Positions 21,129-60,344 of a DNA stretch of 64,000 nucleotides are shown in pieces. The stretch is from positions 5,942,308 through 6,006,307 of the forward strand of contig CM082592.2 in assembly GCA_040954595.2 (NCBI GenBank). The letters are read 5' to 3'. Numbering within the stretch: the first letter of the stretch is position 1; each line of letters begins with the position of its first letter. This DNA comes from Balanoglossus misakiensis. Its lineage: Eukaryota > Animalia > Hemichordata. Below the pieces are notes generated by a model. It was not told the DNA's origin. It saw only the letters and a list, made by a program, of their open reading frames with translations, and made no database searches. The translations under genes were made by a program, and so were the position numbers.

Positions 21129-21406
21129 GTACATACATACATACATACATACTCTTACATACATACATACATACATACATACATGCATACATACATACAT
21201 ACATACATACATACATACATACATACATACATACATACATACATACATACATACATACATACATACATACATACATACATACATACATACATACATACAT
21301 ACATACATACATACATACATACATACATACATACATACATACATACATACATACATACATACATACATACATACATACATACATACATACATACATACAT
21401 ACATAC
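21129..21406. repeat. (TACA)n microsatellite
   Basis: Direct inspection; nearly uninterrupted tetranucleotide array. Confidence 0.99.
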
Positions 21407-22379
21407 GTTCAAAGATAAAAACAAGAAAATCATGGTATTGGTGCACACTTTATGAACTTTATTGACATATCTCACTACACATGTATCCTATCGCTGTCTG
21501 ACACATCTCATCATTTATAACATAAAATCTTACTGTAAGATGCATGGGCACAAGTCATTGCATAAGTTATTAAAAAGAAGGTGGGAATGTTCATGATCAG
21601 GGGGGTTCTCGACAGAAGAATATGACAAACTCAAAAAATTAAAAGACTAGATATTCAAGGCACACCTGGTACACAGTTTTTCTGGTTACAACATGACATA
21701 ATTTTGTTCGTATTTCAGCTAGGGTTGCACTTCTCAACTTTTCTGTGTAACTGACCATTGACATTGAGGCCTTGTGAATCTAGAAATCAAGTCTTTGTTT
21801 GGATGCCAGATTACATAGCATAAAGAAAAGTTTCTGTGTGGCTACAATCCACCGCTGAGGGCGCTTGCAAAACATGCAGTATGTAGACAGCTGACATTGA
21901 GGGCGACAAACTTGTCAGAAACCTATTTCAGTATTTTTTCCCAAACTATCGTGACTACAGCCAGGGAAAAGTGTGTGTAAACTCAGACAAATTTTAATCG
22001 CTGTGTAAAACCTATACATGACATTGCTGCTAGTCTAAAAAAAAACTAAAAGTATAGAGTTCCTTTTTTGGCTTTTCTGTGAACACATTTATAGCTGTGC
22101 ATCTTGGCAGACGTGAAAAAATAAATCATACAATATTATGCCGATATTTACATAAAATTTGCATACAGTTTGTCCACAATAAAAAAAATGGGAATAGGAA
22201 GCACAGAATGTATACAGAAATCTGGAGGGTTTTCTCAAATACACAGAGAATAAGTCACACATGCATATACAAATAACCTCGTACATGTCAGACTACAAAA
22301 ATATTGGAGATGGCTTGGTATCCACTTGTAATGTGCTAAAGCATGGTCACTGTACTTATCATAGCATAATGCTGCACTA

Positions 22380-28400: not shown

Positions 28401-30742
28401 TTCTTCACAGACAGCTGCACGTTATTCGCTCCGCCGCTGGACGACCGCTTCAGTCCGGTCTCCGTGTTCCGGCGCTCCAGCGAACTCAGCAGGCTCTGCG
28501 ACCGCGTGCCGCCGACGGGCGCGGCGGTGGTGGGCGACGTGGGGCTGCCCATGCCCATCTGCCGCTTCAGCTGGTTCACCTCGAAGGTCTGCTTCTCCAG
28601 CTTCTCCTGCAGCGCCGTCTTGTCGCGCTTGATGTTCTCCAGCTCCTCCTGCGCCTCGTTGCGGATGTCGTTGGCGATGACGACGGCCGTCTGCAGGTCG
28701 GCCTGGAACTGGCGCCACTCGTCCTCGTCCCGGGCGCTCTTGCGGCGCACGTCGTTCATGGTCCGCTCCAGGTCCTGCTTGTACTGCTTCATGGACTTCA
28801 CGGTGAGCTGCAGCTCGTTGATGGTGGCCGCGTCCTGCTGCTTCTCGGCCAGGTGCCGCTCGCACTCGATGTCCATCTCCTCCAGGGAATCCTTCAGGTT
28901 GCCGATCTCCGCTTCCAGCTCCTGCTTCTCCGTCTGCACCTTCATCAGCTCCTCCTTCAGGTCCATCATCTCGCGGTTGTAACGCGTCTTGTCGTTCTCC
29001 GACTCCTCCTCGTACTTCGCGATGGTGTTGCACAGTTTCGCGTTTTCGTTCTTGCTTTTCGCCAGGGCCTCTTCCAGATCCGCCTTTTCAGTTTCCAAGG
29101 CGTCTTTTTCCCTTTCTATATTCTCCAGCATTCCGGCCAAGTCGGGCTTGTCACTGCTGTGCAAGAGCTCGCTGGTCTGCGCACGTTCTTGCTGTATCCT
29201 AGTCTTCAGCCGTTCCATCTCCAAGTGATCACTAGCAATACTGCTTTTATGCTCGTGTAAGCTCTTTTCAATTTCCACTTTATCGGTTATGACATTCTCC
29301 AGAGTGGCTTCCAAGTCCCTATTTTTCTCCCTCAGATTCTGAATCAAATGTTCGTATTCTTTCTGATTTCTGATATCTCTGAAGAGACCCTTCGATTCGT
29401 ATTCCTCACCCTGATTTGTCATTAAATCGAGGATCTGTTGTTCGATCTGCGACTTGTCGCACGTGTAGGTGGCTTCAAACGCGTCCGGGTCGTACTGCAC
29501 GTTGCTCACTTCGATGACGTCTTTCAAGTAGTCCACCTCGGCCCTGCTTCGGTGCAGTTTCTCCGTCTGGCTGCAGAGCGCCTCCAGGAGGATTCCCTTC
29601 TCCTCCATCAGCCGGTCGTTCTCGAAGGTCAGGTCGCCCATGGACTCCTGCATGTCCTCCAGCTCCTGGATGGTGGCCTGCAGCTCCTCGTTGACGCTGT
29701 GGTGCGTCTCCTCCATCTGGTGGATGCGGTCCTGCAGGCAGGCCACCGAGCCCTCGCTGCGGAGGCTCTGCACCTCCCAGTTGGTGGACTCGCCGGCCAA
29801 CCCGTAGCGCTCGTCCGGCACGAACACGTGGTCGTCGTCCGACATGGAGGCGTAGGCGATGCGGTCGCCGTTCTCTGACGTCGGGTCGGGCGACGTCAGC
29901 GCCTCCATGGAGCCCTTCTCCTTCGGCGACAGATCGCTGGAACTGACCGTGCTGCCTTTGCTCTTGCAGGTGCCGTCGACGTTCAACAGCATGGCTTTCT
30001 CCGAATCCGTTCTCCTCTCGTGGTTGGCGCCGTCCTGCGCTTTCTCCTTGAGCAGCTGGTTCTCCTGCTTGAGTTGCTCGATCTGCTGCTTCATGGCGTT
30101 GTTCTCCTGCTGGGTCCTCTGCAGCAGGTTCTGTATCTCGGACCACCCGTCGGCCCCCGACTGGTTCTGGGCCATGCTGCTCTGCTGCCTGTTGTTGGCG
30201 TTGCCTATCTTGTCTCTGCCGAGCAACACGCAGTCGCCGCCGGCACCGGACGCCCGGCTGTTGGCCCGCAGATCCTCCCGACTCAGGCGCAGGAACCCCT
30301 CCTGGCTGGAGTACCCCCTCCGGTGTATCTGCGACTCGCTGGGACTGGCGGATATCGGCCTCTCCGGAGAATTGTCAATAATGTTCTCATACGAGCAACA
30401 GCCCCTCAGGGAGCCGTGGAACCCGCTGCGAGACCGGGCAATGTTCGTCTGGGAGCCCGAGCGGTTCTCCTTCGTCACGGTCAGTTCCGGGAAATCCTCG
30501 TAGTAGTCGGATCCCTTGGGGATTCCGATGGTGGAGCGGGGCCTCTGCTTGCTGCTGGCGGAGGAGGACCGGCGACGGACGCTGCCGATGAGGTCTTCCT
30601 GGCTCTTGCTGAGAAAGCTTCGGGACAGAGGCACCTGGTTGTGGTGGTTGTTCGTGTGGCCGCTTAGAAATGACCCGTCGTCGGACGTTAGATCGGATGG
30701 TTCCTGGTCAGCTGTGTCATACTGAGAGAATGATTTCTTCAT
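25452..30742 (-). CDS. SPECC1L: Cytospin (SPECC1/SPECC1L family): long coiled coil plus C-terminal calponin-homology domain, ~1079 aa
   Basis: Exons 30742-27879, 27538-27430, 26647-26531, 25970-25911 and 25541-25452 total 3240 nt in frame, with an in-frame stop just 5' of the ATG. Motifs: [79 protein letters not shown]. Probably a co-ortholog of SPECC1 and SPECC1L. Confidence 0.95.
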
Positions 30743-33700
30743 TCTGCTTTATCCACTGAACCCTGCCGGTCAAAAGAGAGGGAAAACAAGTAATCAGTAA
30801 AAGTATTTTCATTTCTTTTCAATGTAAAGTGTAAAAATTCATGAAAATAACAATAGTAGAAGTGAGTTTTCTAGCAATCTCAATGTAATTCTACGGGAAG
30901 AGACACGTGCTAAAGTTCGGGCGGTTTACCTAATTATATGCGCACACACCATGATCCTTACTTGTATTTTTATTGTGACATAAAAGTACTTAAAACTCTG
31001 GCTGATGACCAGTCTTACTCGTACTAAGAACGACACAGGAGACTGGTACTGTTGGCCGAGACACAACTGTCAAACTGTGAAAGAGGTGATATTACATTAC
31101 CTCACAATGAGAGAAATATTTCTGGCATGTGAGCAACAAACACATATAATCAAAACTGTCTGTTTTGACAATTGTAGGATGAAATCGGTACCGTACTGTG
31201 CATCTCTTTCAAAATGGTCCAAACAATAGTCGGTGAATGCACCATGCGTGCTTACATTTCGGGTGCAAATAGAAAAATTCTTGAAATTTCAAGAAAAGTT
31301 TCCAGGAGTACAAGGGGTTTTATTGTTTTGCTCAATGAACTTTGTCAGACTACTTTACACAAGGACTGACAACGAGGTGAGAGAAATTAACAAGTATGTC
31401 CCGAACGCATGTTGTGATCATTTGGATTTTTTAACGACTACCTTTTGATTAATGGCGGAGGTCCATGGATGAACAGAAATGACAGGCAGTCGCATTGTAA
31501 AATGAAATTATACGACTTACTATAGTATGTTGCTTTTGTAGTGTCCGAATGACCATGCAGTCAGTCATAAATGTCCTTTCTGAATGACACAGTGAATGGG
31601 CAATTTTGGTTCATGGCGTTGTGGAACCTTAAAATCATGAGAACCCTGTAATTAATTGTGTCTACCTACATATACCCCAGTACACACCCGTCTAATCATT
31701 GTGACATTTTAGTGTGCTGAACTGTAAATAGAGAAAATTAAATATACATACAATCATGGTAGAATGCGTTAATATCAGCAGAACAAGATGCTTTTCAGGT
31801 ACGAAAGGGGAATCTCATGACTTAGACCTAGCCATGTGGTATTTAATCAATTAACAAGCCGAATTCCGAACAATAATGACTCCATTATTCACAGGCAGTC
31901 ACAATGAATGAACAATTTAATTGAGCAAAATTGCAATCAATAATAGCTGTGGTCTAGCTCAAACCACTGGTTTCTCTCCAATTGGACAACCAAACCAGGC
32001 ACTTGAAAATAACCTAGATCATGGAAGCTGTCCCCGAAGAAATCAATACAGGTGGCTGATAATGACTAATTTAATCATACATGTGGTGTGTATCTGTAAT
32101 AAGGACTGCAGTCTATTATAGAGATTTGGGCAGTTCATCACAGAAAATTACACAATGCTCATGATTTTTAAGATACAGAAATTAATTACTACGATAGCTG
32201 TAAGAAAACCAGGGTGAATGTGTAAATATGTGTAGAGAAATTAATAGTGGGTGTGGCTGGTTGGCCAATACAGCAAGTTACTGATCTTGAGTGCAGACAG
32301 TGTGAATGACACACACATTGTGTGGAAAACCTTGATTGACTTGCATATGGATTGTGATACATGACACTCGAATGAAAAAAACAGGTTCAGGCTTTACGTG
32401 AACAGGAACATAGTCAAGAGGTTATAAGGGGGAGAAGTTAGCTTGCCAAGAACTTCAATATCAGAACAACGGAAGGAAGACAGATTGTTTTCAGGACACA
32501 CAAAAAAAGGGTTGGAAAATAGTCATGCGTATACTAAAAGGATAATGGAAGTGGAAGTAGGGATTGCATGCGACGACAAAAGAAATTCACAATCGTCTTT
32601 TTTTTCTACTCACAGAAAGGCCTCATATGAGGACCATGGCCGCGCCATGCCATGTACGTGCATGTGACAACTACACCACCCCCACGCTGTTGTTCAACTT
32701 GTTGGAATGTCTAGAACCGGTCAAAGTACAAGACCCTGCCAGCGTTTGCGCGAGATTGTCGTGCTCGGCGAAAAAAAATCCGGTGAATATAATTCCTGAG
32801 TAAACAGCCTGCCTGGCAGGTATCACTGGGACGATTGGTCGGGTGGGCACGCATGCAGCCACTCGTGGCCTGTCCCGTTGTTGGGGGCGAATTTATGGCA
32901 GCATAAATTGACGGCCATTCTAAAAGTCAGTCGTACACACTGATCGAAACACAATGGTCATAAAATAAGAATACCGGTAGGCTTATGTGGACAATTCACT
33001 ACTGGGATGAATTTACAGTTCCATGTCTCTCGATGACTGCGCTTGAACTAATATTTATTCGTGCAATGTCTTCCTGTCTTATGAAGTATCTAATGTCTCG
33101 CAGAAGTCTGAGAGTCTGACCACAGACAGGTGGACTGATCGAAACCACGGCCACTAGTCGAGAAGCGACCGCAGGCCAACTGTACGAGAAATACCTACAT
33201 GTACGTGCGTCTTATAGTTTCCCTTGGATTTCCTGCGGTATGCACCGATTATGACCCTGGAAATCAGGTTGCTTCTCTCGGATGTTTCGGGGGGTGATAG
33301 TCCACATCCCAAGGTATGGCTGGCACACAGGTATGGCCGTGGAGGACAAAGGGAGATATTGTGTTACCCCGAGTGAAAAGCCCTCCCCGTGACTGCATGG
33401 TACGACCTGTCTGACAATGACGGAAACAACAGGAATATTGTTTCCCCTCTGAGAAGGGGGGGGGATGTGGGTCATTGTGACAAGACCGAACTTCTGAAAT
33501 CTGAAATATTGCAACTTATGATGACAGGGCACTGCAGGTAGACAATGGCCGGTACACAGACGTCGACCTGACCGCACTCAAGAATTTGTTTGTCCGCGCG
33601 TCTGTCTTTGGACAACACTTCAGCGTTGAACTCAATCCTTCAATCACAATAGTTGGCAGTGCAGAGGTTGGCCCTTATGAATCAGAATGATGCAGTACAC

Positions 33701-43552: not shown

Positions 43553-44670
43553 TATCTGAATATCCGGCCAAACACTGGCTATGCTTGTGTGTCCGAGTTA
43601 ATTCAATGGTGTTCATCATCCCATTGATATATACCACGGAGATTTTATGAAGGTTCTAAACTGTAAATGACCATGACAACGGTTGTCAGCACAAAGTATA
43701 GCAGAACTGCATGAAGTATGTTCACTTAATAAAAGATGACTAATATTCCCAGCTTGTTGGGGATCGATATTTAAACAGATGCAATTTTTCTCCAAGACAA
43801 AGTAACACCAGTGATGGCTTATTTTGACATGGTGTGCTATTCAATTGCCCAGCTCTGGCAATGTTTTTTTATGATAGTTTGACAACAGCTCTTTTTTTTA
43901 AAATGAAGTACAGACTTTTTGATAATACACATCCACGCTGCATTGGGCATTTCACATATAACAGATTATTACATGCAACACATACTGGGGGCTGCTTTGT
44001 TGTAAATTTCAACAAGTTAGGAATTAACAAACCCAAGTGTTAGACGATGATCGCAAAATGGTAGAATTTTGTTGTTAAGACATTTTTTTACAATTCCATA
44101 CCAATGTGTACCAGAATACAGAGGGATTCACTTTAGTCCAATTCCTTCAATGCTTAAATTCACTTTCTGAACTCTACTGTGCAATATTTTGCTCAGTAAA
44201 AGAAGAGGTCTCTTTATCGACAACAGATGTTTTTTTTTTATTTCTAGCACTTATACAATGTTGTAAATATGAAACAGTTTTAAAGATTAATATATCAACT
44301 CTGTATGACAAAGGAGGAAAGCATTCTCCTGTTTTGTGGCAAAGATATATCAAGCTTGTATCCATGGCAACTGATAGGTGTATTTGTCATGGTTATTTTT
44401 TAACGATACTTCTTGACAATTATAGCGGTCTGTTTTTGTGTCATTTCTCATTGAAAAGGTCATGACCTTGTCAGATGCAACTCTGCCATTTATTCTGTCT
44501 AATAACCAGTTCCAGTCTTACTCTGCACAAAACCTCCCAGAGTCCCCCGCAGTAACAAGGAAGCATCCACAAACTGGCCCTTTTCGACAGGTCCAATAGG
44601 ACTTGTATTTACTAACTGGGTCATTCCACAGAATCCCCAACCAATTCCTGAGCATTGATTCTAATCACGG

Positions 44671-45843
44671 TCATTCGGAAGACTCCAGCTGATCCAACGC
44701 TACATCTTTGGCCGTCTCTCCTGAAACAATTTTCAAGCACTGCTCGGCAAATTCTAGAAACAGAGGTTCGTGCATTGCCTTTTCCATGGCTCTGTCCTTG
44801 TTGCTGGCGTCGTCAACGTGGCCTATCAAATCCCTCAGGTGAGGGTTTTGGAGCAAACTTTTCATGTGCTGTGATTCTCCTGCAAAAGTAACCAGAAAGA
44901 GTCGAGTCATGTTTCTTGTGTTTAGTTACCTCTGTGTGACCTCACATGGTAGGTAGCCATTTTTGTTTAAACATTCAACTACTGCCCATATCTCTTCTAT
45001 TCACCAAGGTGATAAATTTCTAACCAGACTACAAGGGTTGAAAAGTGTGTGTCATTTTACAACTTTGAGAAGTCGATGACCCCAAAGCCCTCACCAAGTT
45101 TTCTGAGTGATTCGACAGAAATGTGGTCTTCGTCAACTTCCATGAATTCTGCCCGATCTTGCTCGCTGTCATCGCTCCATATCTCACCCTCCTCTGAAAT
45201 GAACAAGTGATTACATATTAATGCACTAAAATGTGTAGAGCATTTGTTGTCCAGTGGACATTATTCATCAAACACAATAATTATTACACCACCTTTGACA
45301 AACAGAAAAAAAACAAAGTTTTACCTCGACTGCTTTCAATCCTGTCAGCCTTCAGGCTCGTTGATATCACTGGCTTTTCTTCATTTTCTTTGTTATGTTG
45401 CAACTGTATTTGATCACATACTGTTTCTGCAAAAGAAACCCACAATGAAATCAATTACATGGGCAGTGGATAATTGTGGAATTACTTGTGATACCGGTAT
45501 ATAATTTGACTTGTCACATACATTCATCATATTTGCATAGTGGATCTAAATCGAAATCAGTTAAGAGGTTCGATTAACCCTTTAAAGTTGGATCTCTGCA
45601 GACGGAAACTTACTTACCTTTGTGATGTTTATAGCAATTCAGAGAGCAGCTGAAAAACAAAACAAAAACAGAAGACAGAAGTGATGACCATTCACTGATT
45701 CAGTCCCAGAGTCTCATTGAGGGTTGTTTATATGGCGATCGCCTATGATCAGGAGTGTACAGTGTTGTTACTTACTATAGAATTTTACATTTTGGACATC
45801 GGTACTTGTGACTCTCTTCCTTACACACCTCACACAGCTTCAT
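44671..45843 (-). CDS. ZNHIT3: Zinc finger HIT domain protein 3 (box C/D snoRNP assembly), 5 exons, ~169 aa
   Basis: Exons 45843-45776, 45649-45618, 45426-45325, 45193-45095 and 44879-44671 total 510 nt in frame. zf-HIT: CEVC...KYRCPKCKILYCSLNCYKHH. C-terminal domain: LGESQHMKSLLQNPHLRDL...AMHEPLFLEFAEQCL. Confidence 0.93.
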
Positions 45844-46200
45844 TGTTCAACTGGTTAATTTCTAGATCAGAGCGGTGTACGGGAGAAGCAGCACCGGTTC
45901 ACTGAGGAGACGGTGTGTATGCACGTGTGGTTTATAGGGAAACGGAAGTGGAATATACCAAGCCGATAGTTTGATGAGGGACAAGGCATGATTAAAATTA
46001 GCATTGGATACTTTGTGGTGATCTGAACAGTCAAAACCCCATGCGATTTTCAAAATTATTACTAAGATGTGATACTAAATATTCCAATTTGGTGAATTTT
46101 GAGTTACTTACACCCCAGGCTGTTGCTGTAAATTGGTGAGCCTTGGACCCACCCTTCCAACAAATAGACAAGTCTTTGACCTACTTTTGGTGATAATAAC
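45844..46200. promoter_or_regulatory. Putative bidirectional promoter between ZNHIT3 and the PPP phosphatase gene
   Basis: Divergent ATGs ~360 bp apart, with an ETS-type CGGAAGTG motif at ~45943. Confidence 0.55.
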
Positions 46201-49200
46201 ATGGCGACTTACAGTTGTGAGTCCAACTTGGATTCCGATCTATCAACCACACGAAATGTCGCCGTGTTTATTCACCGGGAGGCGGACCACAGGTATCTGT
46301 TAGTAAAATGTAGCGAAACCAAAGGATGGTGGCTTCCCCACGCGACTGTCAGTGGGGAAAAACAGACGTTCGCCGATGCCGCATCCATCGCTGTCAGGGT
46401 ACGTATTAGAAAACTTACCCGGCCGGTAAAAGTGAAAACCCCACAAGTGAACGTGTCCTTGACAATCTCAATGTCAAACGAAATGTCATCGTTGTGCATG
46501 GCGTTGTGTTTCTTATGTTATTCGATCTGTAGTGGAAGAAGTGTGGTTGTACTGAAACACGCTTCTGTATAATAAAAGACACTACACTAGAATATAGAGC
46601 TGCCACCAAAATAGCGGAACTTTAATACTCAAATTCCTCTTCGCAGAGACGTTTATCATTACATTATCAGTCAATGACCGTGTCGGCGAGGGCTGGTCTG
46701 TAGGCTAACCATGTATCACGAATAAACAAGCTCATTTCATGAAACGTGATTGACTAAATGTATATCCGGCTTACAGTTTTGCTTTACTGGCTGTTAAATG
46801 AAGTTCAGTGATGCTAATAATTTTATTTCAAGAAACCAATTAAGGAAAATATAAAATATCATAAATATTACTTACGAGACAACAAACGAACAAACAAACA
46901 AACAAACAAAACAACAGAACAGGTAAAAATTAGAGCAAAACATCATTATTAAAAATGACCGATGAAAATATTCAGGAAAAAACTCATTCAAATTTATTAC
47001 GATAACTTTGAGATTACTCAAAAGCAAAAAAAAAAATGGCTGACAAATATGTTTATATATGATTTAAAAATAAATGAACCATATGATTTATTTATATATG
47101 TCAGATTGTTAAATCTATCAATCTATGTCAACTCTGTAACCCTAACACTTTACAAAGATTCTGTTACTGTTGTACCTATTTATCTTTTAATAGCTCCCAT
47201 TGAGTAAATAGAAAATATAAATGATTTGATATATTTATGTGTTTTGCAGAAAAGTGGTGTTGAAGTCGAGTTGAGTGGCATACTTGGCATCTGCCATACA
47301 GGGCTACCAGAGGTTCACCGCTCGGTGTTACAAGTCCGATTCTTGGCCGTGTTGAAGCCGAGCCTGAATCGCAAGAAATCCCTCCCCCAAGGAAGCCAGT
47401 CAAAGAAAGTGGAAGTGGAGCTGGAAGACTTCGTCAAGTGGTATTCCTGGGATGAGATGCAGGAGTTAAGCGGTCAAGATCCGGGATTGCTGGGAAGAGA
47501 GCCGTTGGAATTGGCCAACTATATCAGGGAAGGTAAGGAATATTTTCTGTGACATTGAACGGAATTAACGTCTGTGTGGAACTCTGCAGGAAGTCGAACC
47601 ACATAGTGATCATTGAAATGCTATGTCATTAATTGGATACTCCTGGAAGTGGGGATATGTTACTATAACTGTATTTACATATACATACATACTGGGAAGA
47701 TGAAATCCTAATTTCATATTTGCCTAATTATAGCATTATGTACTTATGTTAAGTTATGATTTTATGTCTTATTCTCTTTCAGGTGGTACGGTGTATCCCC
47801 TGTCGTTTCTCAGAGAAGGTTTCATCCATTTAGTGAAGACAGCCGACCAAACGACAACTACACCATCACACACTGCACAGTTGCTTCAAGCAGCGAAATT
47901 TGGACGCAATGGTAAGCTGTGGAACGTTGTGTGTGCAACTTTCCACAAGTCAAGGTAGTTGACGTGACGTGAGGCAATATTTCCCATAATATTTCACTCA
48001 AAATGTATTCTCGACAGCACTCTTTATTTTATGGTTTTCGCCTTTTTTTTGGTTCCGCGACAGAACAAGAACTTGTACTAGAGGAGTATCTGGATATCTG
48101 TTGGCCGTGCTTGACGATGAATAAGTCGGTCTTCACAAAACATATGACAGCGAAGGGTGTACCAGACGACCACTGCCCACATCTCTTCAGGTAAATGCCT
48201 TCCCTTTGAAAAAAAAATACGAGACAGACCAGCTCATCCTGACATTGCTGCCTGTCCGCCAACATTTTGGTATAAAATTGTTCAGATTTTAGTATACTTT
48301 CAGCCGATACCATATTTTTTGTCAAACACAAGAAGCTAACAGTTTTAATTAAATTTAGTTGGAATAAAAATGAATTAAGGTGTGTCCTGTACATGAAGCA
48401 TCTATTGTCGAACATCACCCATCAGTCTGTTCTACCAGCACAAATCAGCAGTGTCTATGAAAATTTAAAATCTACATGTTATATTCATTTCATGTTAACC
48501 TTTCAACTTTAACCTTTGACCTACAGAGCCTTTGACGTACACAACAGAGGCTACCTCCACTTTCATGAGTTTCTGAGTGGACTTGCGGCAATGCAGCCAC
48601 ACACGCCACACGGTGGGCCACCCGCTGAACAGAGATGTAAATATATTTTCCGTTTCTACGATGTGAATAATGATGGATTATTAGAATTTACTGAATTTAA
48701 GTAAGTATACAAATCTGTTTTTGTTGTTGTTGCTTATTTTCTGTTAGCCACTATAAGAGGTTGATAATGTGTGTGGTTGTACCCATCAGTAAGTTTGTAT
48801 AAATGGACCAAAATATTTTTGAAGTTTAACATGGAAATAATGCAGGTATTGGGGCTGTAATGGTTTTAAAAATATGTATGTGTGACAGATAAAATATGTG
48901 GCAGTGTATTCACTGCAGTGCACTGACTGTGCTTGTTTGTACTTCAGAGCAATGGTGTCTGACATCAGGAGAAGAAAAAACATGCAAGTCACCGACGAAG
49001 CATTGGAAAAAGATGCTGTGGCAAGTGCCAAGTAAGACGCCCTCCACTGATGGCGCCCTCTGGAGACCAGAGTCACTCTGATCTCCAGAGGGTGTCGTTC
49101 GTTTCGCTTCATGACGCCGTTGATTTTGCTCAAAGGATTCCATTTTCAAATCATGTGAAGAATAGACAGATACCATCGCTGGTGCAGATCCCTGAAAATA

Positions 49201-52200
49201 CATGGATATATTGAAACTATATTTTTTTGATTCGTTATTTTTCAGGGTTTTTGGAACACAACCCAAAGCCAGCCTGGGCCTCAACGAGTTTTTGAATGCT
49301 GTTGGACAGTTGAAGTTTCGGGGAACATCTTTACTCTTGAGGCTACCCAAAGTGCCTGTGAAGTTGAATGAGTGAGTTGTGAACTTTGATCGTCACAAAA
49401 ACTGCTTTCACACATTATTGAGAAAATTGTTTTTTGAACACACCTTGATTTGCGTATTGCATATGTATACATTATTGTACTATGTCTATCCTAGTTTGGC
49501 TTGGCAAATATTTGTCTGCATCAAAAAAGCTTTTGTTTTCCTGCGGATGTGAACAGTTTTGCAGATTCAGTTGACACGGAAGAGGATTTACCGAACGAGA
49601 CGGAGAAGCGAAAGCGAAAACTCAAGGCGTCTCACCTCAACAAGAGTGGAAAGTTCACTTTGGTGTCCGTGGACATGAATGCCGATGGTAAGATAACATG
49701 GCCATGCGGAATATTTGGTTACGATTTTGCCTCTGAGGATGCAGATGCGTGACGAGATTAGACAGACAGCAAATTGTTTCATGCGCATTAAAAATTCATT
49801 GGAAAATGCAGCATATTACGTGTAGTTTGTTATGCCTGCCATATGGACAGCTTCGTTGCGCCCTCATATTGATGGTTGTGAATGTCGGGCTGACATTGTG
49901 GATTTCTCGGCAGGCGTAGACAGCAGTGAATCAGACAGTGGGTTGATGATGAAACCGGGTCGAATACAACCCAAATACGAACTAGCTATCCACTCGGTGA
50001 AGGTGAGACGCAGTGGAACGCTTTCCGACGTCAGCGCCGTATGGGATATTCAAGGTAATATGTTGGTTAATGGAAATCTGATGTTTAGACAGTATGGCAG
50101 TTGGGAATTGCGTGCATGCATGCAGACGCAATATGCCATTATTTGACTTGCACAGTATGTTGTTTTTAATAGACAGGATATGAAATATGTAAGCGATCCC
50201 AAGTCATTTTCCTAATCTGTCATTCCCAAATAATACTTTAGAGTTGATTCCCTTTAAATTTTCGTGTCCTTGAACTGCCCAAATTTGCCAGAAGCCATGA
50301 CTGAGATTGAATCCCTGAAAAAACTGGGGAAAATGTGGTTTATACTGATGTATACACATGTATATTCTTTCCATGGTCTCCACACGATCCAGGGACGTCA
50401 GCAGTAACCAAATCAACCAAGTCAACACTGTCAGACGTTGATGACCTTGACAGTGATAAAAGCAGATTTCAGAGGACCACGTCTGTGGATGCCTTCAATC
50501 TTGTAAGTATAAGCACCTCTGATGTCATGTTATTCGCAGAATTACCAGAGCTAGTGTCTTTAATTGTACATCTAATACAGAGGAGATATTGTCCAAGATG
50601 GTCGTGGACGATGTGATACATGATATCACTGGACACCATTCAATATGAAAAGTGAGGGAAAACTGATTGCAAACTTATTAAGCAAAAAAAATCACCACTT
50701 TGAACATTCATTTACATGAAGAACATTTGACGTTTGCCCTGTCAGTGGCTAATATATTCCTATTAGATTTTCCATCACTGTCTGTAAGGAGTGCATATTT
50801 TGAGAAAGTCATTTCTCCATTCTCTCGCTACAGAGGTCACATCCCAACGAAATGTTGACTGGTCTGCGGTATTTCGAGAGAGCAATAAAAGGGGACGCAC
50901 CCGAACAGACAAAACAACCACTAAGTTGGGGAGCTGTAGATAGAGGTGCCCTAGCTCGGTGTCTATTAGCAATATGTCGTGAAGCGAAAGAAGTTTTTGC
51001 AGCTGAATCAAGATTGCTCAGGCTCAGTGCACCTACGTATATATTAGGTCAGTTCAACTTTTTTGAGTTTTTGTAAAATTTGATACTGTAATACTTTCAT
51101 GCACAATAACATAAGGTGATTCGAATACATGTAAAAATATTTCATTTTATTCACAGGTGACATCCATGGGAATTTCCATGACTTGGTTTGTTTTGAAAAA
51201 GTGCTGTGGCGAATGGGGCCTTTACTGACGCCTGCAAATTTCTTATTCCTTGGAGATTACGTAGACAGGGGAGAGCATGGCCTAGAGGTTTGTTGTCCTC
51301 TCTTTTGCTACACCTCATTCGAATCCGTTGTGTTAGCGTGAATCTACAAAGATAACTGTCTTTTGTATACTCACTGAAATATTCCATGATTTCCATCTTT
51401 TCCAGGTGGTGGCATACCTTTTCGCCCAGAAGCTTCTGGCTCCGAGTAAATTTTTTCTCATCCGTGGAAATCATGAAGTGAGGACTGTGCAAGTCATGTT
51501 CAATTTTCAAAGGTAGATGTGCTTCGTATCTACATACTACAGTAATCTTGCAGTGTGAATATATATATATATATGAGACACATTTGAGCTCTATGTGACT
51601 TTTGGCTATTTTACAGTACATATACTGTTTACCACCTCCAGTTTCTTGACTGCCTTGCCAAAGCACAATGAAACACCAGATGTCTGTAGGTGTGTTATCC
51701 TTCTGTGACATCATTTATGTTGTTTATTTTACAGAGAATGTGAAGGAAAGTTTGGCCCGACTGTTGGCACACAACTTTGGGAGTCTGTCAATGACTGCTT
51801 CGATGCAATGCCACTGGCTGCAGTAGTTGATGAGAAGGTATTTGTCCATTACTCAGTTTGCAAGGGTGTCAGAAACGATGCCGATTTGGTTTTTAATTTC
51901 AAGTAATTAATAAGATATTGTTATGTTCTTTGATGCTTGACTTTTTTTCCCAGATTTTCTGTGTGCATGGTGGTATTCCTGATGCAAAACTGTATACCGG
52001 AGGGGGCTGTTTCTCCAGCATCGAAAAAATCCAGAAACCATTGAGAGATCCGGAGCACCAAAGTCCGCTGGCGTGGGAATTAATGTGGAATGATCCAGTC
52101 AGGTAAGTCCCCTGCCCCCCTCCTTTACACCTAGGGCACTTAATCCATGGGTGTACAGTACACTTGTGTTGTTTGAATACCGTTGTGTTGCAGGTGTGCT

Positions 52201-52944
52201 GATTTTTGGCGGGAACAGTAGCATGATCGACATTTCAGAAAAATTGTATCTTCTGAATATTAGGCAGCTTCAACTTGGCATTGCAGGATGTCTAAATGGA
52301 TCACATGCCAGTGAAAGTCCAATATTTTGTCCAGTATCTGCAGAGGAAGAATCAGCATCCAGATTTTTTGTGTTCTAGGTCCGAGGATCAAGGCCCTGAA
52401 TACATCAAAGAACTAGAGGATCATGGGGGTTTTGCCAGCAACAAAAGGAGGGGAACAGCGCACGTATTCAGTTGTAGTGCCTTGGAAAACTTCCTGGAAG
52501 AGAATAATCTGTCGCATGTCATACGTGCTCACGAAGTACAACAAGTAGGATTTCAGGTAAATGCTGGTGCTGCATTATTTAATGTTTTTGCAACATACTA
52601 CCATTCAGGGGATGAATTGCAATGGTGAGATCACAAAACTACTTGATTTTTTGTGTAAAATTTGAGAAATTCACTCATACATATATTCCTTTACTGTGGA
52701 TATAACATTGAGTTCACCACAAGGAAACATTGAGTGGGGACATCATAGAAGGGCACTGACTTGCATTGGGAGCCTCAGTACCATTGGCGCTATTTTTTCT
52801 TTCATGGTTGTCTTGTAGGTACAGCAACGGGGCAAGTTACTGACTGTGTTCTCATCGTCCCATTACTGTGGGGGTGGCAATGATGCTGCGTGTATCCTTG
52901 CTGATCGGTGTAAACTGAGGACTATCAGACTAGACACGACTTGA
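46201..52944 (+). CDS. Multidomain protein: degenerate Nudix-like domain + EF-hands + PPP-family Ser/Thr phosphatase, 17 exons, ~836 aa
   Basis: Exons 46201-46398, 47250-47532, 47783-47911, 48064-48190, 48527-48700, 48948-49031, 49246-49371, 49557-49687, 49914-50054, 50393-50502, 50834-51047, 51157-51287, 51406-51512, 51735-51837, 51954-52102, 52379-52556 and 52819-52944 total 2511 nt in frame. PPP motifs: GDIHG, GDYVDRG, RGNHE, HGG, WNDP, RAHE. EF loops: [12 protein letters not shown] and [12 protein letters not shown]. Nudix-like segment: YLLV...GWWLP....G...F..AA. Confidence 0.88.
49052..49096. repeat. Short intronic palindrome
   Basis: GGCGCCCTCTGGAGACCAGAGT-C-ACTCTGATCTCCAGAGGGTGTC, about 20 nt downstream of a splice donor. 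Confidence 0.75.
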
Positions 52945-54100
52945 CACTCGAGTGTCAGAAAAACAAAACAACCCGAGGGAGGTATCTATCAAAATTGATT
53001 ACTGAATTTCAGATATTTGGCGACTTTCTTTGAAGTGAAGAGCAGATGAGCAAATATCAAAGGATTTTTTTTACTTGCATTTTACGTGGAAACGATATTC
53101 AGCTGCCTTCAAAGAGACATTCACAAATTCTACAGTTTTTGGAATATGTGTAATTTCAGAGATGCACTCCGTAAATGTTGTTGTATGGTGCTTTCTGTAT
53201 ATAAATTATACAATTGAAATATGTCATTCGCTGCTGAACTTTGACATATTGTGAGGTCAAAGGGCAAATCAGCCACTTGTCCTATGCACTGCCATCTTTG
53301 CATATGCAAATTTGTTTGTGTGATAAATTTTGAATGAGTACAGTACTTGATTTTGAGTGCATCATGAATTTCATTTTTTTGTACAGCCTGTTGATAGAGA
53401 CTTCACGTATCATGGTAAGGATTTGATCAATCATGTGATGTTTATTTATACGCACAAAAATGATTGCTTTTGCCTGAAATATTCCAGTTTTGCTCATGCA
53501 AATTTGTGCTGATTGTTAATTAGCATAGTCAGATGTAAAGTTTTGCAAATATTTTGAAATATTTGAGAGTGGATGTTGTCTTTATACATAGCCCCCCTAT
53601 ACCCCCACCGGTATTGAATAATTTCCAGTTCTTAAGTATATTCCTGGTGTTTGGGTGACTTGCACACAGTGGCTGGAATTTGCAATGTCACTAAGGCCAT
53701 TTTAGACCTCCTTGTGTGGTTGGCCAAAATTGACGAAACCCTTCATAGTGTAATGCCTTTTGAACATCCGACCCATCACAGTTTGGCTCTGCCATATCGT
53801 TTCCCTGTATGTGGATAAAACATGACAACAGAAATGTGTAAGGGAGAGCAGGAAGTGTGTATAGTTCCAAATTGTCTCGCAGAGTGATGCAATTATACTG
53901 ATTATGTACAAATTGCAACAACGCACAGCATTGATTTTTCATCAACAGAAACTGAAATTCAGCTGGCAACAACTTCACATGCAAACTCTATAGCGTACAA
54001 CTTTGGAAAAAAAAACTAAAGACATGTCTTTGCCAACTTTCTAATTTCTATAACATGGTATCTTTATTGCTAAAAGATGATGTGTGCATATTGTAACCAC

Positions 54101-54215
54101 TACGGTGGACGATACCCACACTCCTCTGCTAAGTCGACAGTAGAGCAGATTATGTTAGCAGAGCAGATTAACTCAGCAGAGCAGGCCGACAGCAAAGCAG
54201 GTATCGTCCACCGTA
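54101..54215. mobile_element. 115-bp MITE with 16-bp TIRs and 6-bp target-site duplication (IS3EU-like termini)
   Basis: AACCAC|TACGGTGGACGATACC...GGTATCGTCCACCGTA|AACCAC, with internal AGCAGAGCAG repeats. Superfamily inferred from the TAYGG ends and 6-bp duplication. Confidence 0.8.
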
Positions 54216-54727
54216 AACCACAGTATATTATCAAGCTGTGTTGAAAGATTTACAAAATTAGACAAAAAACATAGTTGTTTTTATTCTGTATACACTTTGT
54301 ATTGCCGTCATTTTGATAACATTTCACCATGGGCAGCATGTGTTGTTTGCGTGGTAGTGAAGTGTCTGTGCGCAAGCTCTCGTGTTTTGAATTTTGTGAT
54401 TTTTTTCCCGCGAACAGATTGTAAAGTCAGTCACCATGACAACATCTGTAGATGTTGTTAAGGCAACGCGTAAAGTTTCAGGATCATGCCCATTGTAAAC
54501 TGATTTTTTCTCTCTCGGAAAGTTATATTTTTGCAGGTGTCTCATTATATGTACATTGTAAAAATCTGAGTAAAGTTCATATTTATGATAATTTTCATTG
54601 TATTCCTTGCCTTTGCATGTTAACAGATTTTGTGTAGTTTCAATATTGCCCATATTTTGGGGGCGAAGGAGACTTGCAATGAGAAACAAACGAAAACCAA
54701 GCTCGCCCCAATGAACAAAAAATATCA

Positions 54728-57408
54728 CTAGGCGTTCGATATCAATTCGGACGGATAAGAGTAACCAAATAATTTAAAATCCCACTCGTAAATGTTATAA
54801 AGTTGTATGAGTATAGCCAGTGGAATCGATTTGTAATATTTTTTGTAAGTTGAAAAGTCTGAACTGTTTGTGAAGTGTGTTCCCACGGTTGGAAACTTGA
54901 TCCTTTCGTCCTGACCGATGAGGTACAAGACATATTCCGCATCTTCGGCCATGGTTTCGAATTTTCCGATGAAATCGTAGGGGACGCTGCACGGACCGCA
55001 CAGGTGGTACATTGGTGTCCAGTGCGCGTCTGCCCAGGCACCCCTGCGCGTGTCGCTCACCAAGTACTCGACGAACTCGCGAAACGTTGGCGGGCCTTCG
55101 CCGAGCGTTCCGTCGGGCCCTTTTTCTCGGAACATCCTGACGGCGTTGTCGTATCTCTCGAAGTATCCATCGCCGGCCTGCCGGTTTTCAAACTTGTCCC
55201 GGTAGGCGGACAGTATTCTTTGGAAGGGGTGTCGCACAAACAGGAATCTGAACTGCAGGCTTCTTTCCAAGATGGCGTCGAACACCAGACTTCCATGGAA
55301 ACTACCGAGGTTGCTGTACTGGTTCTTGAAGTGTACGAAGTCGTGACTTAAGCCGTCGGTGGAGTTGACTTTTCCGTCTAGGACCAGAAGCACCTTCTTC
55401 CAGCTTGTACAGCCAATTTTAGGTATCATGCAGTACATTAGCAAGTTCTTGTAATTTACCAAGAGAAGGTATTTATGTATTCTATCGTTATATTGATTTG
55501 ACATCCTCATCTTCTCGCACATTTTCTTCAAACGCACGAGTCTGTACTGCGCTTCGACTTCTTTTGGTTTATATTTCCCTGTTACATTTCTTTTCTTCTG
55601 CAAATTTAAGAATTATAAAAGGAACATGTTAAGGATGTAAAATTGAAAGTATTGTCATTTCTTTTTATTGTGGATATTTGCTTTCTCCTTTTTTAGTCTA
55701 TGGGCAAAACATTTATCGAAGTTTATCTCAAAATAGAGCACGGTGACCATACGATTTTATTTGAACACTGGATGAAATTCTATTTTACTGAGCTATGTGT
55801 AATTTTACGTGAAAATGACAAAAGTGAGTTTTCCAGCAATTCTCAATATACATGTATCTATGGGAAGAGACATGCGCACATGTCAAGTTCGCGCGGTTTA
55901 CCTGTTTAGTTCTGCGCGTATATTTAAGTCACTCAGAATTCCTTACAATTTTAGATTATTTTGCATACTCTCAGGACTATCTACATTTCATCTTTAAGAA
56001 AACAGATCACATTTCATCTTTTAAAAGATAAAATAGCCGGTCAGGTGATAAATGCTCTTACCCAAGCTCTCACTTCGGGAAATATTTTGCCTGTGTCCAA
56101 AGCAGTATTCATAAACAGCTTATCATTCCTAGAAAGTTTAGTCATAAGTTCACCGCCGCGACGGTATGATGGCCGTATCGCTTTGCTAGTGTTTTGCCTA
56201 TACCGAGGCATTGGGATACGTTGGTTTTGTAGTTGAACTATTGGTCCGCCAGATCGCTTGGCGGTGATTTTGTCCTGTCCAAATTGTACATTTTGCTGCG
56301 ATGGGTTGAATTTCCCGTATGAGTAGCGCATTGACTTCGCATCCCAATGCTTCTTTTCATCTTTGCTGAGAATGTGTGGTTTCTGAAGGCGAGTTTCAAA
56401 TGGTAGAGTTTTATTGTGAAATTTGTGGCGTTCATCTTGAACGCGAGACTGCTCAGGATCATTAAGGCTTTCGGGAAATGGTTTTAGATGTTCATTCAAC
56501 CCTGGCCGTGTTTCGCCTTTCCTGGCTCCCAGTCCCGCAATGGAAAATGTTCCGAGGCGTCGATTTCTGTCTATTCCAACTGCACTCGTGTGGTTTCGAC
56601 TCTTGAACTGTAAAGTTTGGTTATTTAGAGACCTTGTCCCGTGCAAACCAAATATTGTTCTTGATTTTTCCTCAGTGATATTTTTGGAGGCATGATGAAC
56701 TTCATTTTGAACTTGCTTCAAATATTGGTCACTTTCCTCGTCGCGTTCACTTCCTTGCTGGCCTTGGCGAGGTTGCACCTGTTTAAAACTCGTCCAACGA
56801 ACATTCCTTCTTGGACCGCGAGGCACTGGAAAGTGTTGAATGATAACCACCTGTTGCTGCTCCCGTGATAACACGCTCAACTCGCTGGCATCGTCACCAT
56901 CGACACTGTCCACGTACACCGCCTTGCTACCAGCGTCGCTTTCCGCGAAGTACCCATCGTTCCTTCCAAATCGTCGCTCGCCTTGCCGATGCCGTCCATG
57001 ATCAAAGTAATGAATGCTTGAAGAAGGGTCTTGTGGTCGTTTGCCTTGCCGTCTGCGGTACCCGACTTCATTTACCGTCTCTGTGTAAATGGAAACTGAA
57101 AGAGGCAGCGATACGTAAATTCTACACCAAATTTCGTCGCTCATTGATTTTTTGATACTTTTCTTCAGTAAATTCTGCGTGAAGATTTCCAGTAAACTCT
57201 CAGGTTGAACTTGTTCGCTCTTTAATGGCCCTAGGCAACTGCAACATAGGTTGTGTACGTTCACGAAAGAAGCCGAAAATTTGAGAAACCGTTCCTTACC
57301 TGTTCCGGGAGACCTGCATATGGTGTACACGAGTTGTATGGACCAAGTCACCACAACGACCACTCCCACGACAAAGAAATATACCTCCAGTAATTTCCGG
57401 ACTCTCAT
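54728..57408 (-). CDS. Carbohydrate sulfotransferase (Sulfotransfer_2; CHST8-14/HNK-1ST-like), paralog 1, ~661 aa
   Basis: Exons 57408-57300 (type II anchor), 57080-56074 (or -56062; long stem) and 55597-54728 (catalytic). 5'-PSB YCMIPKIGCTSWK, 3'-PB FVRHPFQRILSAYRDKF, HW.P...LC.PC...YDFIGKFET, Y..DF.LFGY. Confidence 0.9.
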
Positions 57409-58237: not shown

Positions 58238-60344
58238 CTACGTTGTTTGAACTATAAATTCTGACGGATAAGGGTAGTCGAATAATTTAAAATCCCATTC
58301 ATAAACCTCATATAAATGTTTGAGTAACTCCTGTGGGAGAGTTTTATAATATCTATAATAGCTTGAAGACTCGGAACTGTTTGTAACATGTGTTCCAACT
58401 GATGGGAATTTTATGTTCTCGTCCTGGTAGATATTGTATAACGCGTATTCTGCATCTGCGATCATAGTTTCGAATTTTCCGATGAAATCGTAACGAATGT
58501 TGCACGGCCCGCACAGATGGGTGACTGGTTTCCAGTGTTCGTCGGAGAGGGAGCCCATCAGCCTGTAGTCCACCAGATACTGGGCGAACTCGCGAAATGT
58601 CGGCCGCCCCTCGTCGACGGCTCGCCTGGACGGGTTTTTCCGGAAATTGCCGACGATGGTCTGGCCGTACCCTCGAAAGAGTTCGTCGCCCTTGCGCCGG
58701 TCCTCGAACTTGTCCCGGTACGCGGACAGCAGTCTCTCGAAGGGATGTCGGACGAACACCAAATTGAAGTACCGAGCCACGATAGAGGCGAGCTCCTCCC
58801 CGTAGTGGCTGTTCAGCGTCTCGTAGCCGTTGTCGAAATGCACAAAACTGTGGTTCAAACCGTCGGTGGAGTCGGCTTTACCGTCCAGCACCAGAAACAC
58901 TTTCTTCCAGCTAGTGCACCCAGCCTTGGGGACCATGCAGTACATCAGACGATGTTTGTTGTTTACCAAAAGCAAATTTCTGTTCACCGTGTAGATACTG
59001 ACGGGACTTTCGTTCGACTTCTCCATCTCTTCGCACATTTTCTTCAAGCGGGCCTTTCTATACTCGGATTCTTTCTCCTTCAGTGCATATTTCTGTGACG
59101 CTATTCTTGTCTTCTGCGGTATCAAAGTAAGAAGAAAAAATGGCACTGTTATTGTGCGCCTGTATCACTTTGTGGATGTTGTACTAAGGATGTTGCTCAA
59201 AATCAATGTGATATACGAATATTACATATTATACTATTAAACAGAACATTTGAAAATCGATCTGATTAAAATCAGATGTAGGGAAAGGCGACGTGGTTTT
59301 TTATGCTGTCGCCTACACTACCACGTCGCCGTTCCCTACATCTGATTTTAATCAGATTGATTTGAGAATATGCACAAAATCTTTCACTTACTCTGTGTTC
59401 TTGTCTTGGAGGAGAGTCGGGTTTCTCTGTCTTGGCAAACTTATCAACACCGCCAACCTTACCATTATCATCAGACCGCCTGGCAACGTTCAAGTTGATG
59501 TACCGTTCAGGTTGACGTGGGTTAAGACGCGGAGGGGATGGGCCAACTGAACGGCCGCCAGGGACATGCCCCTTGGCCACATTTCCCCGCTCAAAATTCT
59601 CCCTGTCGCTGTATTTCTCGCGTGGGCCTTCAAAATGTGTGTTGCTTTGATCTTTTTCCTGGTGAACCGGTTTCTGTAGGAAATTCTGCAGCAGGTTTAT
59701 ACTGCTGAGTATTTGCCCCCGGTTTGCTGATAACTGGCGTTGTTCCCATGGCGATCTCGTCTCCCTGACGTCACCTCTCCGGAACGCCTGTTGGCCGTGT
59801 CCCCTGCTATAATCATACTCTCTGTTTGGAAACTGGACCCTGGGCTGCTTGTTTTGACGTTGGTAGTAGCCAAGTTCACCTGTGTCACTGTAATCTGACC
59901 CTGAAAGTATTTGTATGTATGGATGTAAGTGAAAACGTTTATAGGCGTTGAATGCCACTGATCGAGGAGGGTTACATAAACCCGAAAGGGTAACTATAAA
60001 TTTTGTCGCTTGTCAACCGCAAATGGAAGGTATATATGCTTGGTGCGGCCATTATTGAGAGGTTCTGAGATCACCCTTGCTCTACAAAGGAATTTGCGCG
60101 TTTTGGTCGGTGAGTTCTCTCATTTGCGCGGTTGACCGCGGCCGCAGAAAGACACAATGGGCAGCTATGCATATGACGACTTAAACATTAAAACGGGTCT
60201 GGTTATATTTCCGTCACATTCCCTACCGCGATTATGTTGATTGGAACTCTTCCAGGTGGTGTAGACAAGTTGTACGGACCAACATACCACTAGTGCGGCT
60301 ACGGTCACCAGCAAATACAACTTCAGTTTTTGTCGTCGCATCAT
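58238..60344 (-). CDS. Carbohydrate sulfotransferase (Sulfotransfer_2), paralog 2, ~500 aa
   Basis: Exons 60344-60227, 59900-59392 and 59113-58238 total 1503 nt in frame. Motifs YCMVPKAGCTSWK and FVRHPFERLLSAYRDKF. Same exon phases and the same WS.QLVYT anchor motif as paralog 1. Confidence 0.9.
59254..59363. repeat. Intronic inverted repeat (~44-bp arms), probable MITE remnant
   Basis: AAATCGATCTGATTAAAATCAGATGTAGGGAAAGGCGACGTGGT ... ACCACGTCGCCGTTCCCTACATCTGATTTTAATCAGATTGATTT, 2 mismatches. Confidence 0.88.

Follow-up and report, generated by a model that had tools for sequence, protein, structure and literature searches.

A predicted pseudo-Nudix, EF-hand and PPP phosphatase in a hemichordate points to an apparently unnamed animal phosphatase subfamily

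We analysed a 64,000-nucleotide stretch of the genome of the hemichordate Balanoglossus misakiensis (assembly GCA_040954595.2, contig CM082592.2, positions 5,942,308 to 6,006,307, forward strand), here called the window. The window contains a predicted gene for an 836-residue protein in which a Nudix-like domain, a four-EF-hand module and a complete PPP catalytic domain follow one another. As judged from its sequence, the protein is likely to be a calcium-regulated phosphatase of a further animal PPP subfamily. All of the component parts are known folds. Within the searches made, the combination of a pseudo-Nudix domain, NCS-like EF-hands and a PPP domain was found only in animals, and the subfamily is apparently unnamed.

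The set of animal PPP enzymes has been treated as closed, with PP1, PP2A/PP4/PP6, PP2B, PP5 and PPEF as its members, and the human set is established. A further conserved subfamily, found in most invertebrate phyla under BSU1-, PP1-, PP2B- or pef-1-like labels, would alter this list. It would also provide a third route, beside calcineurin and PPEF, for coupling calcium to dephosphorylation, and would connect animals with the EF-hand Bsu1 group known from protists.

Results

A single predicted gene encodes all three domains

The predicted gene is on the plus strand and has 17 coding exons, between positions 46201 and 52944 (Table 1). Together they comprise 2511 nt, encoding 836 amino acids and a TGA stop codon. 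There are no internal stops, and all 16 introns, for which splicing was predicted from genomic DNA, have GT..AG ends. For exon 8, an acceptor at 49565 broke the frame; that at 49557 keeps it and was adopted. The spliced protein aligns over residues 1-836 with proteins of Ptychodera flava (P0001; 81.2% identity) and Glandiceps talaboti (70.6% identity). Because both alignments span the whole chain, chance splicing is excluded. Hence, the original prediction, made by a model from the DNA letters and proposing 17 exons and one open reading frame of about 836 residues, is confirmed by the frame, the intron ends and the end-to-end relatives. The FRAFD (residues 245-249) and FRFYD (287-291) sequences that it described, the acidic/basic linker and all of the PPP motifs are also present in the spliced protein.

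In-frame stops occur upstream of the ATG and the start of a ZNHIT3-like gene is 357 bp away, so exon 1 fits as the first coding exon. Transcript-sized contigs of several relatives carry the whole architecture; for example, P0008 has 803 amino acids on 2,802 bp and P0035 has 802 amino acids on 2,637 bp. Contigs that hold a complete reading frame and little else lend indirect support to a single transcript. An alternative is that the model fuses two neighbouring genes, or that the linker exons are mis-predicted. Splicing was indeed deduced from genomic DNA, and most named relatives are likewise gene predictions. Conversely, dozens of relatives from many phyla are collinear from end to end, and the transcript-sized contigs hold whole reading frames. 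We consider an error of this kind barely credible.

The catalytic domain has an intact active site and, by domain content and identity, does not fit the named classes

The GDxHG, GDxVDRG, GNHE, HGG and RxH motifs, the metal ligands and the catalytic histidine are all found in the window protein. In an alignment of 112 rows, the metal ligands and the catalytic histidine are kept in 109-112, and the range is 108-112 once both clamp arginines are included. According to the available part of Kerk et al. (2021; PMC8249667), PPP enzymes are recognised by a two-arginine clamp, DP and RG doublets, and a tyrosine and a cysteine in motif 6. The clamp arginines are present in 110 and 108 of the 112 rows, DP in 109/111, the motif 6 tyrosine in 105 and the cysteine in 93. 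To judge by these residues, the active site is intact. The Pfam Metallophos model scored 106 bits on P0001, and was weak on single exons of the window.

Matches of the catalytic domain in the PDB were flat (BSU1, 227 bits; calcineurin, 213; PP1, 207-210). The family has SSSxYC in place of SAPNYC at motif 6, and an LW-x-x-G motif in 60 of 142 family-search representatives versus none of 113 PPPs from outside the family. The chain stops at the last catalytic strand; no residues come after the domain in the window protein, which ends RLDTT, or in the listed ends of 60 of the 63 core rows.

Each named class was considered in turn. PP1 was rejected on identity (27-32% in structural alignments), on SSSHY in place of SAPNY, and on the missing PxTPP tail. 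Membership of PP2A/PP4/PP6, whose catalytic subunits have about 310 residues, was rejected for a multidomain protein of this length ending in RLDTT; the TPDYFL-type tail is present in the PP2A reference P0187. Calcineurin A (PP2B) was rejected by the tail, where no residues remain for the CNB-binding helix, the calmodulin site or the auto-inhibitory domain. For PP5, there was no TPR or PPP5 match in Pfam, and placement beside PP5 in the tree described below was rejected by the approximately unbiased (AU) test (p-AU 0.0006). By domains, PPEF/RdgC was rejected because the EF module is N-terminal and there is no IQ match. The Kelch type of Bsu1/PPKL was also rejected by domains; there is no Kelch match, and the N-terminal half folds as Nudix plus EF. 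The claim that this is a complete PPP domain outside PP1, PP2A, PP2B, PP5 and PPEF is thus supported by domain content and identity.

The animal proteins form a clade with protist phosphatases

We built a tree from an alignment of 72 catalytic domains with 283 columns. The sample did not extend to calcineurin, PP4, PP6 or land-plant BSU1, and reference labels were assigned from names, Pfam content and motifs. Under LG+G4, the 20 animal rows formed one group (SH-like approximate likelihood ratio test, 97). These and 12 protist rows formed a clade with support of 100 and a stem of 0.86 changes per site. With a mixture model (C20), support was 100 for the animal and protist clade and 94 for the animals.

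For the AU tests, 24 near-redundant rows of the 72 were dropped and constrained searches were run on the remaining 48. A union of animals and EF-hand Bsu1 that excludes the protist clade was rejected (p 4e-47). The best trees put the family away from PPEF, and placement beside it was rejected with two PPEF rows (p-AU 0.004); in a separate test with all six, the union was not rejected (0.067). Also not rejected were a sister of Bsu1 (p 0.57), nesting among EF-hand Bsu1 (0.22 and 0.51) and a position outside PP1/PP2A/Bsu1 (0.58). The tree therefore gives the family a clade of its own, shared with protists, and excludes PP5; it does not fix the sister. A safe reading of these sequences is a distinct PPP subfamily, of uncertain sister, with an EF module in common with EF-hand Bsu1.

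The protist members (P0146, P0133, P0201, P0208, P0224, P0230 and relatives) share the catalytic subtype and the RxxS motif described below. They lack the Nudix domain, mostly lack the EF module, and may themselves be an undescribed clade. One protein of the cryptophyte clade, P0137, has a possible decayed EF module, although the match is weak (5 bits, E 0.04).

Relatives occur in most invertebrate phyla

Exon 11, used as a query, found 54 proteins among 165 candidates, with those of P. flava and G. talaboti at the top. We then searched with a profile built from 35 relatives, which scored 7,992 candidates and recovered 77 proteins. The named taxa were a calcareous sponge, sea anemones, molluscs, annelids, nemerteans, a brachiopod, a priapulid, chelicerates, crustaceans, echinoderms and amphioxus. 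An unfiltered family search, for which the best 150 representatives were listed, contained 142 new ones. At domain thresholds of 15, 40 and 100 bits, 79 of these 142 have the EF module and PPP domain, and 42 have all three domains. Sources of the named proteins among 30 representatives looked up include corals, a tardigrade, krill, a millipede, beetles, a moth, true bugs, a cricket and mites. For members without N-terminal domains, the names include Rhodelphis, cryptophytes and two stramenopiles. By sequence, the full-length family is present in a sponge, cnidarians, molluscs, annelids, arthropods, echinoderms and amphioxus. This survey of the architecture places three-domain relatives across most invertebrate phyla; the window protein is not a one-off. 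Database labels of family members include BSL1 homolog, BSU1, PP1-like, pef-1-like and 2B, a mixture that is a sign of best-hit naming.

No vertebrate, tunicate, fly or nematode was among the named matches, most of the 142 representatives being without a name. This agrees with the original prediction, which knew of no vertebrate counterpart. The gene has likely been lost in vertebrates. Loss in tunicates, flies and nematodes is suspected, because most of the 142 are unnamed and a word-based search missed insects that the unfiltered search found.

A large cluster of fast-evolving members is contained in the subset P0104-P0235. Its three named proteins are from mites (Halotydeus twice, and Oppia), which suggests a mite expansion in which some members have lost N-terminal domains.

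The EF-hand module resembles neuronal calcium sensors

The N-terminal half was modelled from residues 18-370 of P0001 and 93 sequences. The predicted local distance difference test (pLDDT) score was 91.9 and the predicted template modelling (pTM) score was 0.89. In this model, the Nudix part is predicted to pack against the EF part, the two forming a single unit. The EF part matched CBL2 (Z 15.0), calaxin (14.7), CIB2 (14.2) and NCS-1 (11.6). Equivalent results came from sequence; 28 of the 29 PDB matches to a family fragment without the PPP domain were NCS-family sensors. The module is well conserved, with 46 of 179 columns at least 90% identical in the 63 core rows.

The sequence had been thought to contain an EF-hand pair in an NCS/calcineurin-B-like context. 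The EF-hands and their NCS/CBL type stand. Conversely, the 'pair' turns out to be a domain of four EF-hands, of which EF3 alone has a canonical loop. This loop is canonical in 61 of 110 rows and, in a less diverged set of 84, the D/N/D/G/E ligands are kept in 78, 68, 78, 77 and 82, respectively. EF1 is disabled, having proline in 107 and cysteine in 64 of 112 rows. The likeness to NCS, CBL, CIB and calaxin proteins thus extends from the four-EF fold (Z 11-15) to an inactive EF1 with a conserved proline and, often, a cysteine. The family differs in that the module is fused into an enzyme and EF2 is dead. A functional EF2 and an N-myristoylation glycine are features of NCS proteins that the family does not share; an N-myristoylation start (MG) was seen in 3 of 112 rows.

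The Nudix-like domain has lost its catalytic box

Residues 1-160 of the model match Nudix hydrolases, including DR1025 (Z 14.8, root mean square deviation 3.0 over 129 residues). An independent atlas model of P0001 had a template modelling (TM) score of 0.76 to a Nudix cluster. The Pfam NUDIX model did not match the window exons or P0001 and was above cut-off in 2 of 24 proteins scanned. We examined the Nudix box (GX5EX7REUXEEXGU) in the 99 of 112 rows that keep its anchoring proline. In the next 30 residues, RExxEE was found in none of the 99. Position G1 was kept in 11, E16 in 4 and E20 in 4; these position counts are sensitive to small insertions, whereas the pattern search is not. An active Nudix hydrolase is ruled out by this dead box. 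The domain is also the least conserved folded part of the protein, with 5 of 158 columns at least 90% conserved, compared with 46 of 179 in the EF module. Hence, the Nudix-like assignment is supported by the fold, in models of P0001, and by Pfam in 2 of 24 proteins; Pfam does not support it on the window exons or P0001, and the catalytic box is lost. The domain is likely to be an inactive structural partner of the EF module.

Inactive Nudix domains with the same fold and a missing catalytic box are known, for example, in NrtR; DBC1/CCAR1 and TIRR have others. The domain described here differs in having no conserved basic residues for ligand binding and in packing on an EF domain in the model.

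Two conserved motifs precede the enzyme

The linker between the EF module and the enzyme contains a basic cluster in 78 of 112 rows (shuffled mean 42, maximum 54). Two motifs, YELAxHxV and RxxS[IV]DxFN, lie before the catalytic domain and nearly match it in conservation (mean top-residue frequency 0.73 versus 0.77). The RxxS motif is present in 85 of 105 rows and in many protist clade members. Both motifs recur in protist members, including some without the EF module. They look similar to the RLSxHAV ... RKISID segment of alveolate PPKL, although the profile comparison was non-significant (probability 0.7%, E 0.08). A complex prediction made without an alignment, using residues 436-832 and 16-370 of P0001, gave no verdict (score 0.00). 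In P0019 and P0020, both Mytilus edulis models, the YELAxHxV segment is present in many tandem copies, as exon repeats or an assembly artefact.

Comparison with known EF-hand phosphatases

Bsu1 phosphatases that have EF-hands and no Kelch domain are reported, in the available part of Kerk et al. (2021; PMC8249667), from an apusozoan, choanoflagellates, a fungus and a stramenopile, and a Cryptosporidium example is listed. The carriers are Thecamonas, choanoflagellates, Basidiobolus, Nannochloropsis and Cryptosporidium (PMC8249667). The 19 metazoan rows of the table in that source cover PP5, PPEF, PP1, the PP2A group and PP2B, with no Bsu1, and its main text has no mention of 'Nudix' (PMC8249667). 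The N-terminal EF layout, which the original prediction set apart from that of PPEF, is therefore not new; the same EF module and PPP domain were already to be found in these protist and fungal Bsu1-type enzymes.

A search of 7,984 candidates with P0236 as the query recovered 113 proteins. On those with N-terminal EF-hands and a Bsu1-type catalytic domain, the animal EF profile reached 28-87 bits, versus at most 17 on PPEF-type EF-hands. With a family fragment as the query, scores were up to 50 bits for EF-hand Bsu1, 28 for NCS-1 and at most 4 for the PPEF type. EF-hand Bsu1 appears to have the same four-EF module in front of the PPP domain, including a closing GTSxLFR motif (a signature recognised by eye), and, among single-domain PDB matches of the family catalytic domain, BSU1 ranks first. 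Conversely, neither the P...GDI insertion nor the SAT[ND]Y motif of the Bsu1 type is present in the family, which has LW-x-x-G and SSSxY in their place and whose catalytic domain sits on a long stem of its own. No Nudix domain turned up in the EF-hand Bsu1 proteins examined. The apicomplexan EFPP probably belongs with the EF-hand Bsu1 group. In the available part of PMC8785970, EFPP of Toxoplasma is reported to be located in the cytoplasm and not to be required for virulence in mice. Additional domains occur in some proteins of the EF-hand Bsu1 type: P0236 has a second EF module after the catalytic domain, P0273 an extra EF-like region in front and P0258 a histidine-phosphatase domain in front.

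PPEF/RdgC (animal PP7) is, similarly, a single-chain PPP with EF-hands, and is regulated by calcium. Its EF-hands are C-terminal and unrelated in sequence to the family module, and its IQ/calmodulin site is absent from the family. Calcineurin (CNA and CNB) likewise pairs a PPP domain with four EF-hands of this fold class, in a separate subunit, and engineered CNB-CNA fusions topped the Foldseek list. In the family, the EF unit is instead fused N-terminally and its sequence matches are NCS proteins rather than CNB; the CNB-binding helix, calmodulin site and auto-inhibitory tail that follow the calcineurin catalytic domain are missing. BSU1 and PP1 are described, in the available part of the source, as inhibited by a phosphorylated C-terminal tail (10.64898/2026.01.06.697939), a tail that the family protein lacks.

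The available parts of PMC2559854 and PMC10214084 give standard PPP subtypes only. No description of the animal subfamily was found in the literature searched, where subscription papers were outside the scope and an earlier listing is possible. Equally, no characterised phosphatase with this architecture, of which the window protein would be an ortholog, was found within the literature and data searched.

Discussion

The position at which the chain ends, without the C-terminal regulatory segments of PP1/BSU1 or calcineurin, would place control on the N-terminal side. We give an even chance to the following scheme, which is read from sequence. Binding of Ca2+ to EF3 would change the shape of the four-EF module, for which the pseudo-Nudix domain acts as a brace. 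The reshaped module would bind or release the pre-catalytic segment (YELAxHxV ... RxxS[IV]DxFN) and auto-inhibition would be relieved. The RxxS serine, when phosphorylated, would provide a second input, and the basic cluster of the linker may direct the phosphatase to the nucleus. As for its origin, the family likely derives from an old EF and PPP lineage related to EF-hand Bsu1; the pseudo-Nudix domain would have been added in animals and the gene lost toward vertebrates.

Several observations weigh against this scheme and origin. Calcium binding, auto-inhibition and activity are all predictions from sequence and models. Only one EF loop of four is canonical; EF2 is canonical in none of 109 rows and the EF4 region has no canonical loop. 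EF3 itself is decayed in 49 of 110 rows, with Nematostella and many fast-evolving members among them, and some members therefore cannot use calcium via EF3. The full-length AlphaFold model has a pTM of 0.49 and, for residues 374-505, a pLDDT below 50, so the domain arrangement is not fixed. A ligand site could be lined by two glutamates and a tryptophan of the Nudix domain, which show about 90% conservation. In the tree, the Bsu1 rows are sister to the animal and protist clade with support of just 85 under LG+G4, the mixture model does not fix a sister, and placements with PP1 (AU p 0.16) and PP2A (0.33) were not rejected. The EF module is missing from most protist members of the clade, a pattern that fits domain shuffling as well as descent.

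Other arrangements can be drawn from the same parts. The catalytic domain could be constitutively active, with the Nudix-EF unit a targeting subunit in which Ca2+ opens an NCS-type groove for a partner or substrate and leaves the rate unchanged. The nearest folds (CBL2, NCS-1, KChIP, CIB2 and calaxin) are adaptors solved with target helices, and the 60-70 residues between module and enzyme are poorly conserved and modelled with low confidence. However, targeting leaves unexplained both the strong conservation of the pre-catalytic motifs and their presence in protist members without EF-hands, and we regard it as unlikely, if worth keeping in mind. Alternatively, the EF module could be a calcium-independent scaffold, and control could be mainly by phosphorylation of the RxxS segment. 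This would suit the non-canonical EF1, EF2 and EF4 loops, the rows in which EF3 fails the canonical pattern, and an RxxS motif that predates the animal architecture. It is an improbable solution, since retention of the EF3 ligands in 68-82 of 84 slower-evolving rows is hard to explain without metal binding.

The original prediction had the enzyme integrating calcium and perhaps a nucleotide ligand. The calcium half remains plausible. The nucleotide half is weakened by the loss of the catalytic glutamates from the Nudix box and by the low conservation of the domain, the lowest of any folded part. In that version, the Nudix-like domain would bind a nucleotide metabolite, such as ADP-ribose, as inactive Nudix sensors do, in addition to Ca2+. 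Retention of the fold from sponge to amphioxus, structural matches that include the sensor NrtR with ADP-ribose (Z 11.5-11.7), and conservation of W46, P48, W132, G150, E152 and E174 (P0001 numbering) in 79-97% of rows all favour it. Yet NrtR ranked under many ordinary Nudix hydrolases, 4 of 158 columns are at least 90% conserved in the 112 rows, and no conserved Arg, Lys, Asn or Gln is available to hold phosphates. A nucleotide sensor consequently seems distinctly improbable to us. Control from the N-terminal side, with Ca2+ at EF3 as the trigger, is the reading that we prefer.

The boldest proposal would make this an eighth animal PPP subfamily, animal-old in its three-domain form and older as a catalytic clade. 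It would combine a calcineurin-like calcium switch on one chain with a nucleotide input through the pseudo-Nudix domain, and would be a hidden animal branch of Bsu1/PPKL. Such a family would have escaped notice through its absence from vertebrates and, probably, fly and worm. We think it rather unlikely that the proposal holds in full.

Table 1. Features of the predicted phosphatase gene (window coordinates; domain and motif assignments are predictions)
Feature	Position	Strand	Description
Whole predicted gene	46201..52944	+	17 coding exons, 836 aa; 81% to P0001 over 1-836
Exon 1	46201..46398	+	aa 1-66; ATG; first Nudix strands, start of degenerate Nudix box
Exon 2	47250..47532	+	aa 67-160; Nudix-like core
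Exon 3	47783..47911	+	aa 161-203; end of Nudix-like domain, start of EF module
Exon 4	48064..48190	+	aa 204-245; EF1 (C-x-P, non-canonical)
Exon 5	48527..48700	+	aa 246-303; EF2 degenerate, EF3 canonical; Pfam EF-hand_1 35 bits
Exon 6	48948..49031	+	aa 304-331
Exon 7	49246..49371	+	aa 332-373; EF4 region, near-invariant FRGTS motif
Exon 8	49557..49687	+	aa 374-417; acidic/basic linker
Exon 9	49914..50054	+	aa 418-464; conserved YELAxHxV motif
Exon 10	50393..50502	+	aa 465-501; conserved RxxS[IV]DxFN motif
Exon 11	50834..51047	+	aa 502-572; pre-catalytic helices, start of PPP domain
Exon 12	51157..51287	+	aa 573-616; GDIHG, GDYVDRG, family-specific LW-x-x-G insertion
Exon 13	51406..51512	+	aa 617-651; RGNHE
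Exon 14	51735..51837	+	aa 652-686
Exon 15	51954..52102	+	aa 687-735; HGG, WNDP
Exon 16	52379..52556	+	aa 736-795; second clamp Arg (RGT), RAHE
Exon 17	52819..52944	+	aa 796-836 and stop; motif 6 SSSHYC replaces SAPNYC; no C-terminal tail
Pseudo-Nudix domain	46249..47817	+	aa ~17-172, spans introns
Four-EF-hand NCS/CBL-type module	47869..49348	+	aa ~190-366, spans introns
EF3 loop	48660..48695	+	aa 291-302; only canonical Ca2+ loop
Basic cluster	49606..49629	+	aa 391-398; candidate nuclear localisation signal
RxxS motif	50473..50499	+	aa 492-500; candidate phosphorylation or pseudo-substrate site
PPP catalytic domain	50939..52941	+	aa ~537-836, spans introns
Intergenic gap, phosphatase ATG to ZNHIT3-like ATG	45844..46200	.	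357 bp; likely shared promoter

Other features of the window

The ZNHIT3-like gene (44671-45843, minus strand; Pfam zf-HIT 32 bits, ZNHIT3_C 79 bits) is head-to-head with the phosphatase gene, and the gap between them is likely a shared promoter. A scan of 44000-56000 against Rfam gave no matches. Downstream, on the minus strand, are two tandem carbohydrate-sulfotransferase exons (54728-55612 and 58238-59164; Sulfotransfer_2 166 and 184 bits), with a long unannotated open frame preceding each.

At 26393-30748, minus strand, a large coiled-coil exon (a 957-codon open frame with GC of ~0.60 versus 0.40 around it) is followed by a calponin-homology exon. We take this gene to resemble cytospin/SPECC1L. 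An exon at 9313-9690, minus strand, had no Pfam match and presumably resembles beta-ureidopropionase. SPECC1L and UPB1 also adjoin in vertebrates, and the pair in the window may be an old microsynteny. Between them, at 12514-20007 on the minus strand, is a membrane-protein gene of no recognised kind in three tandem copies, with no Pfam family above cut-off; the open frames are at 13345-14166, 16967-17854 and 19147-20007, and similar tail exons are at 12514 and 18765. A short plus-strand stretch at 569-940 had no Pfam match and resembles, we presume, protein-kinase subdomains of a KSR-like type. A long tetranucleotide microsatellite at ~21120-21420 appears as a repetitive open frame.

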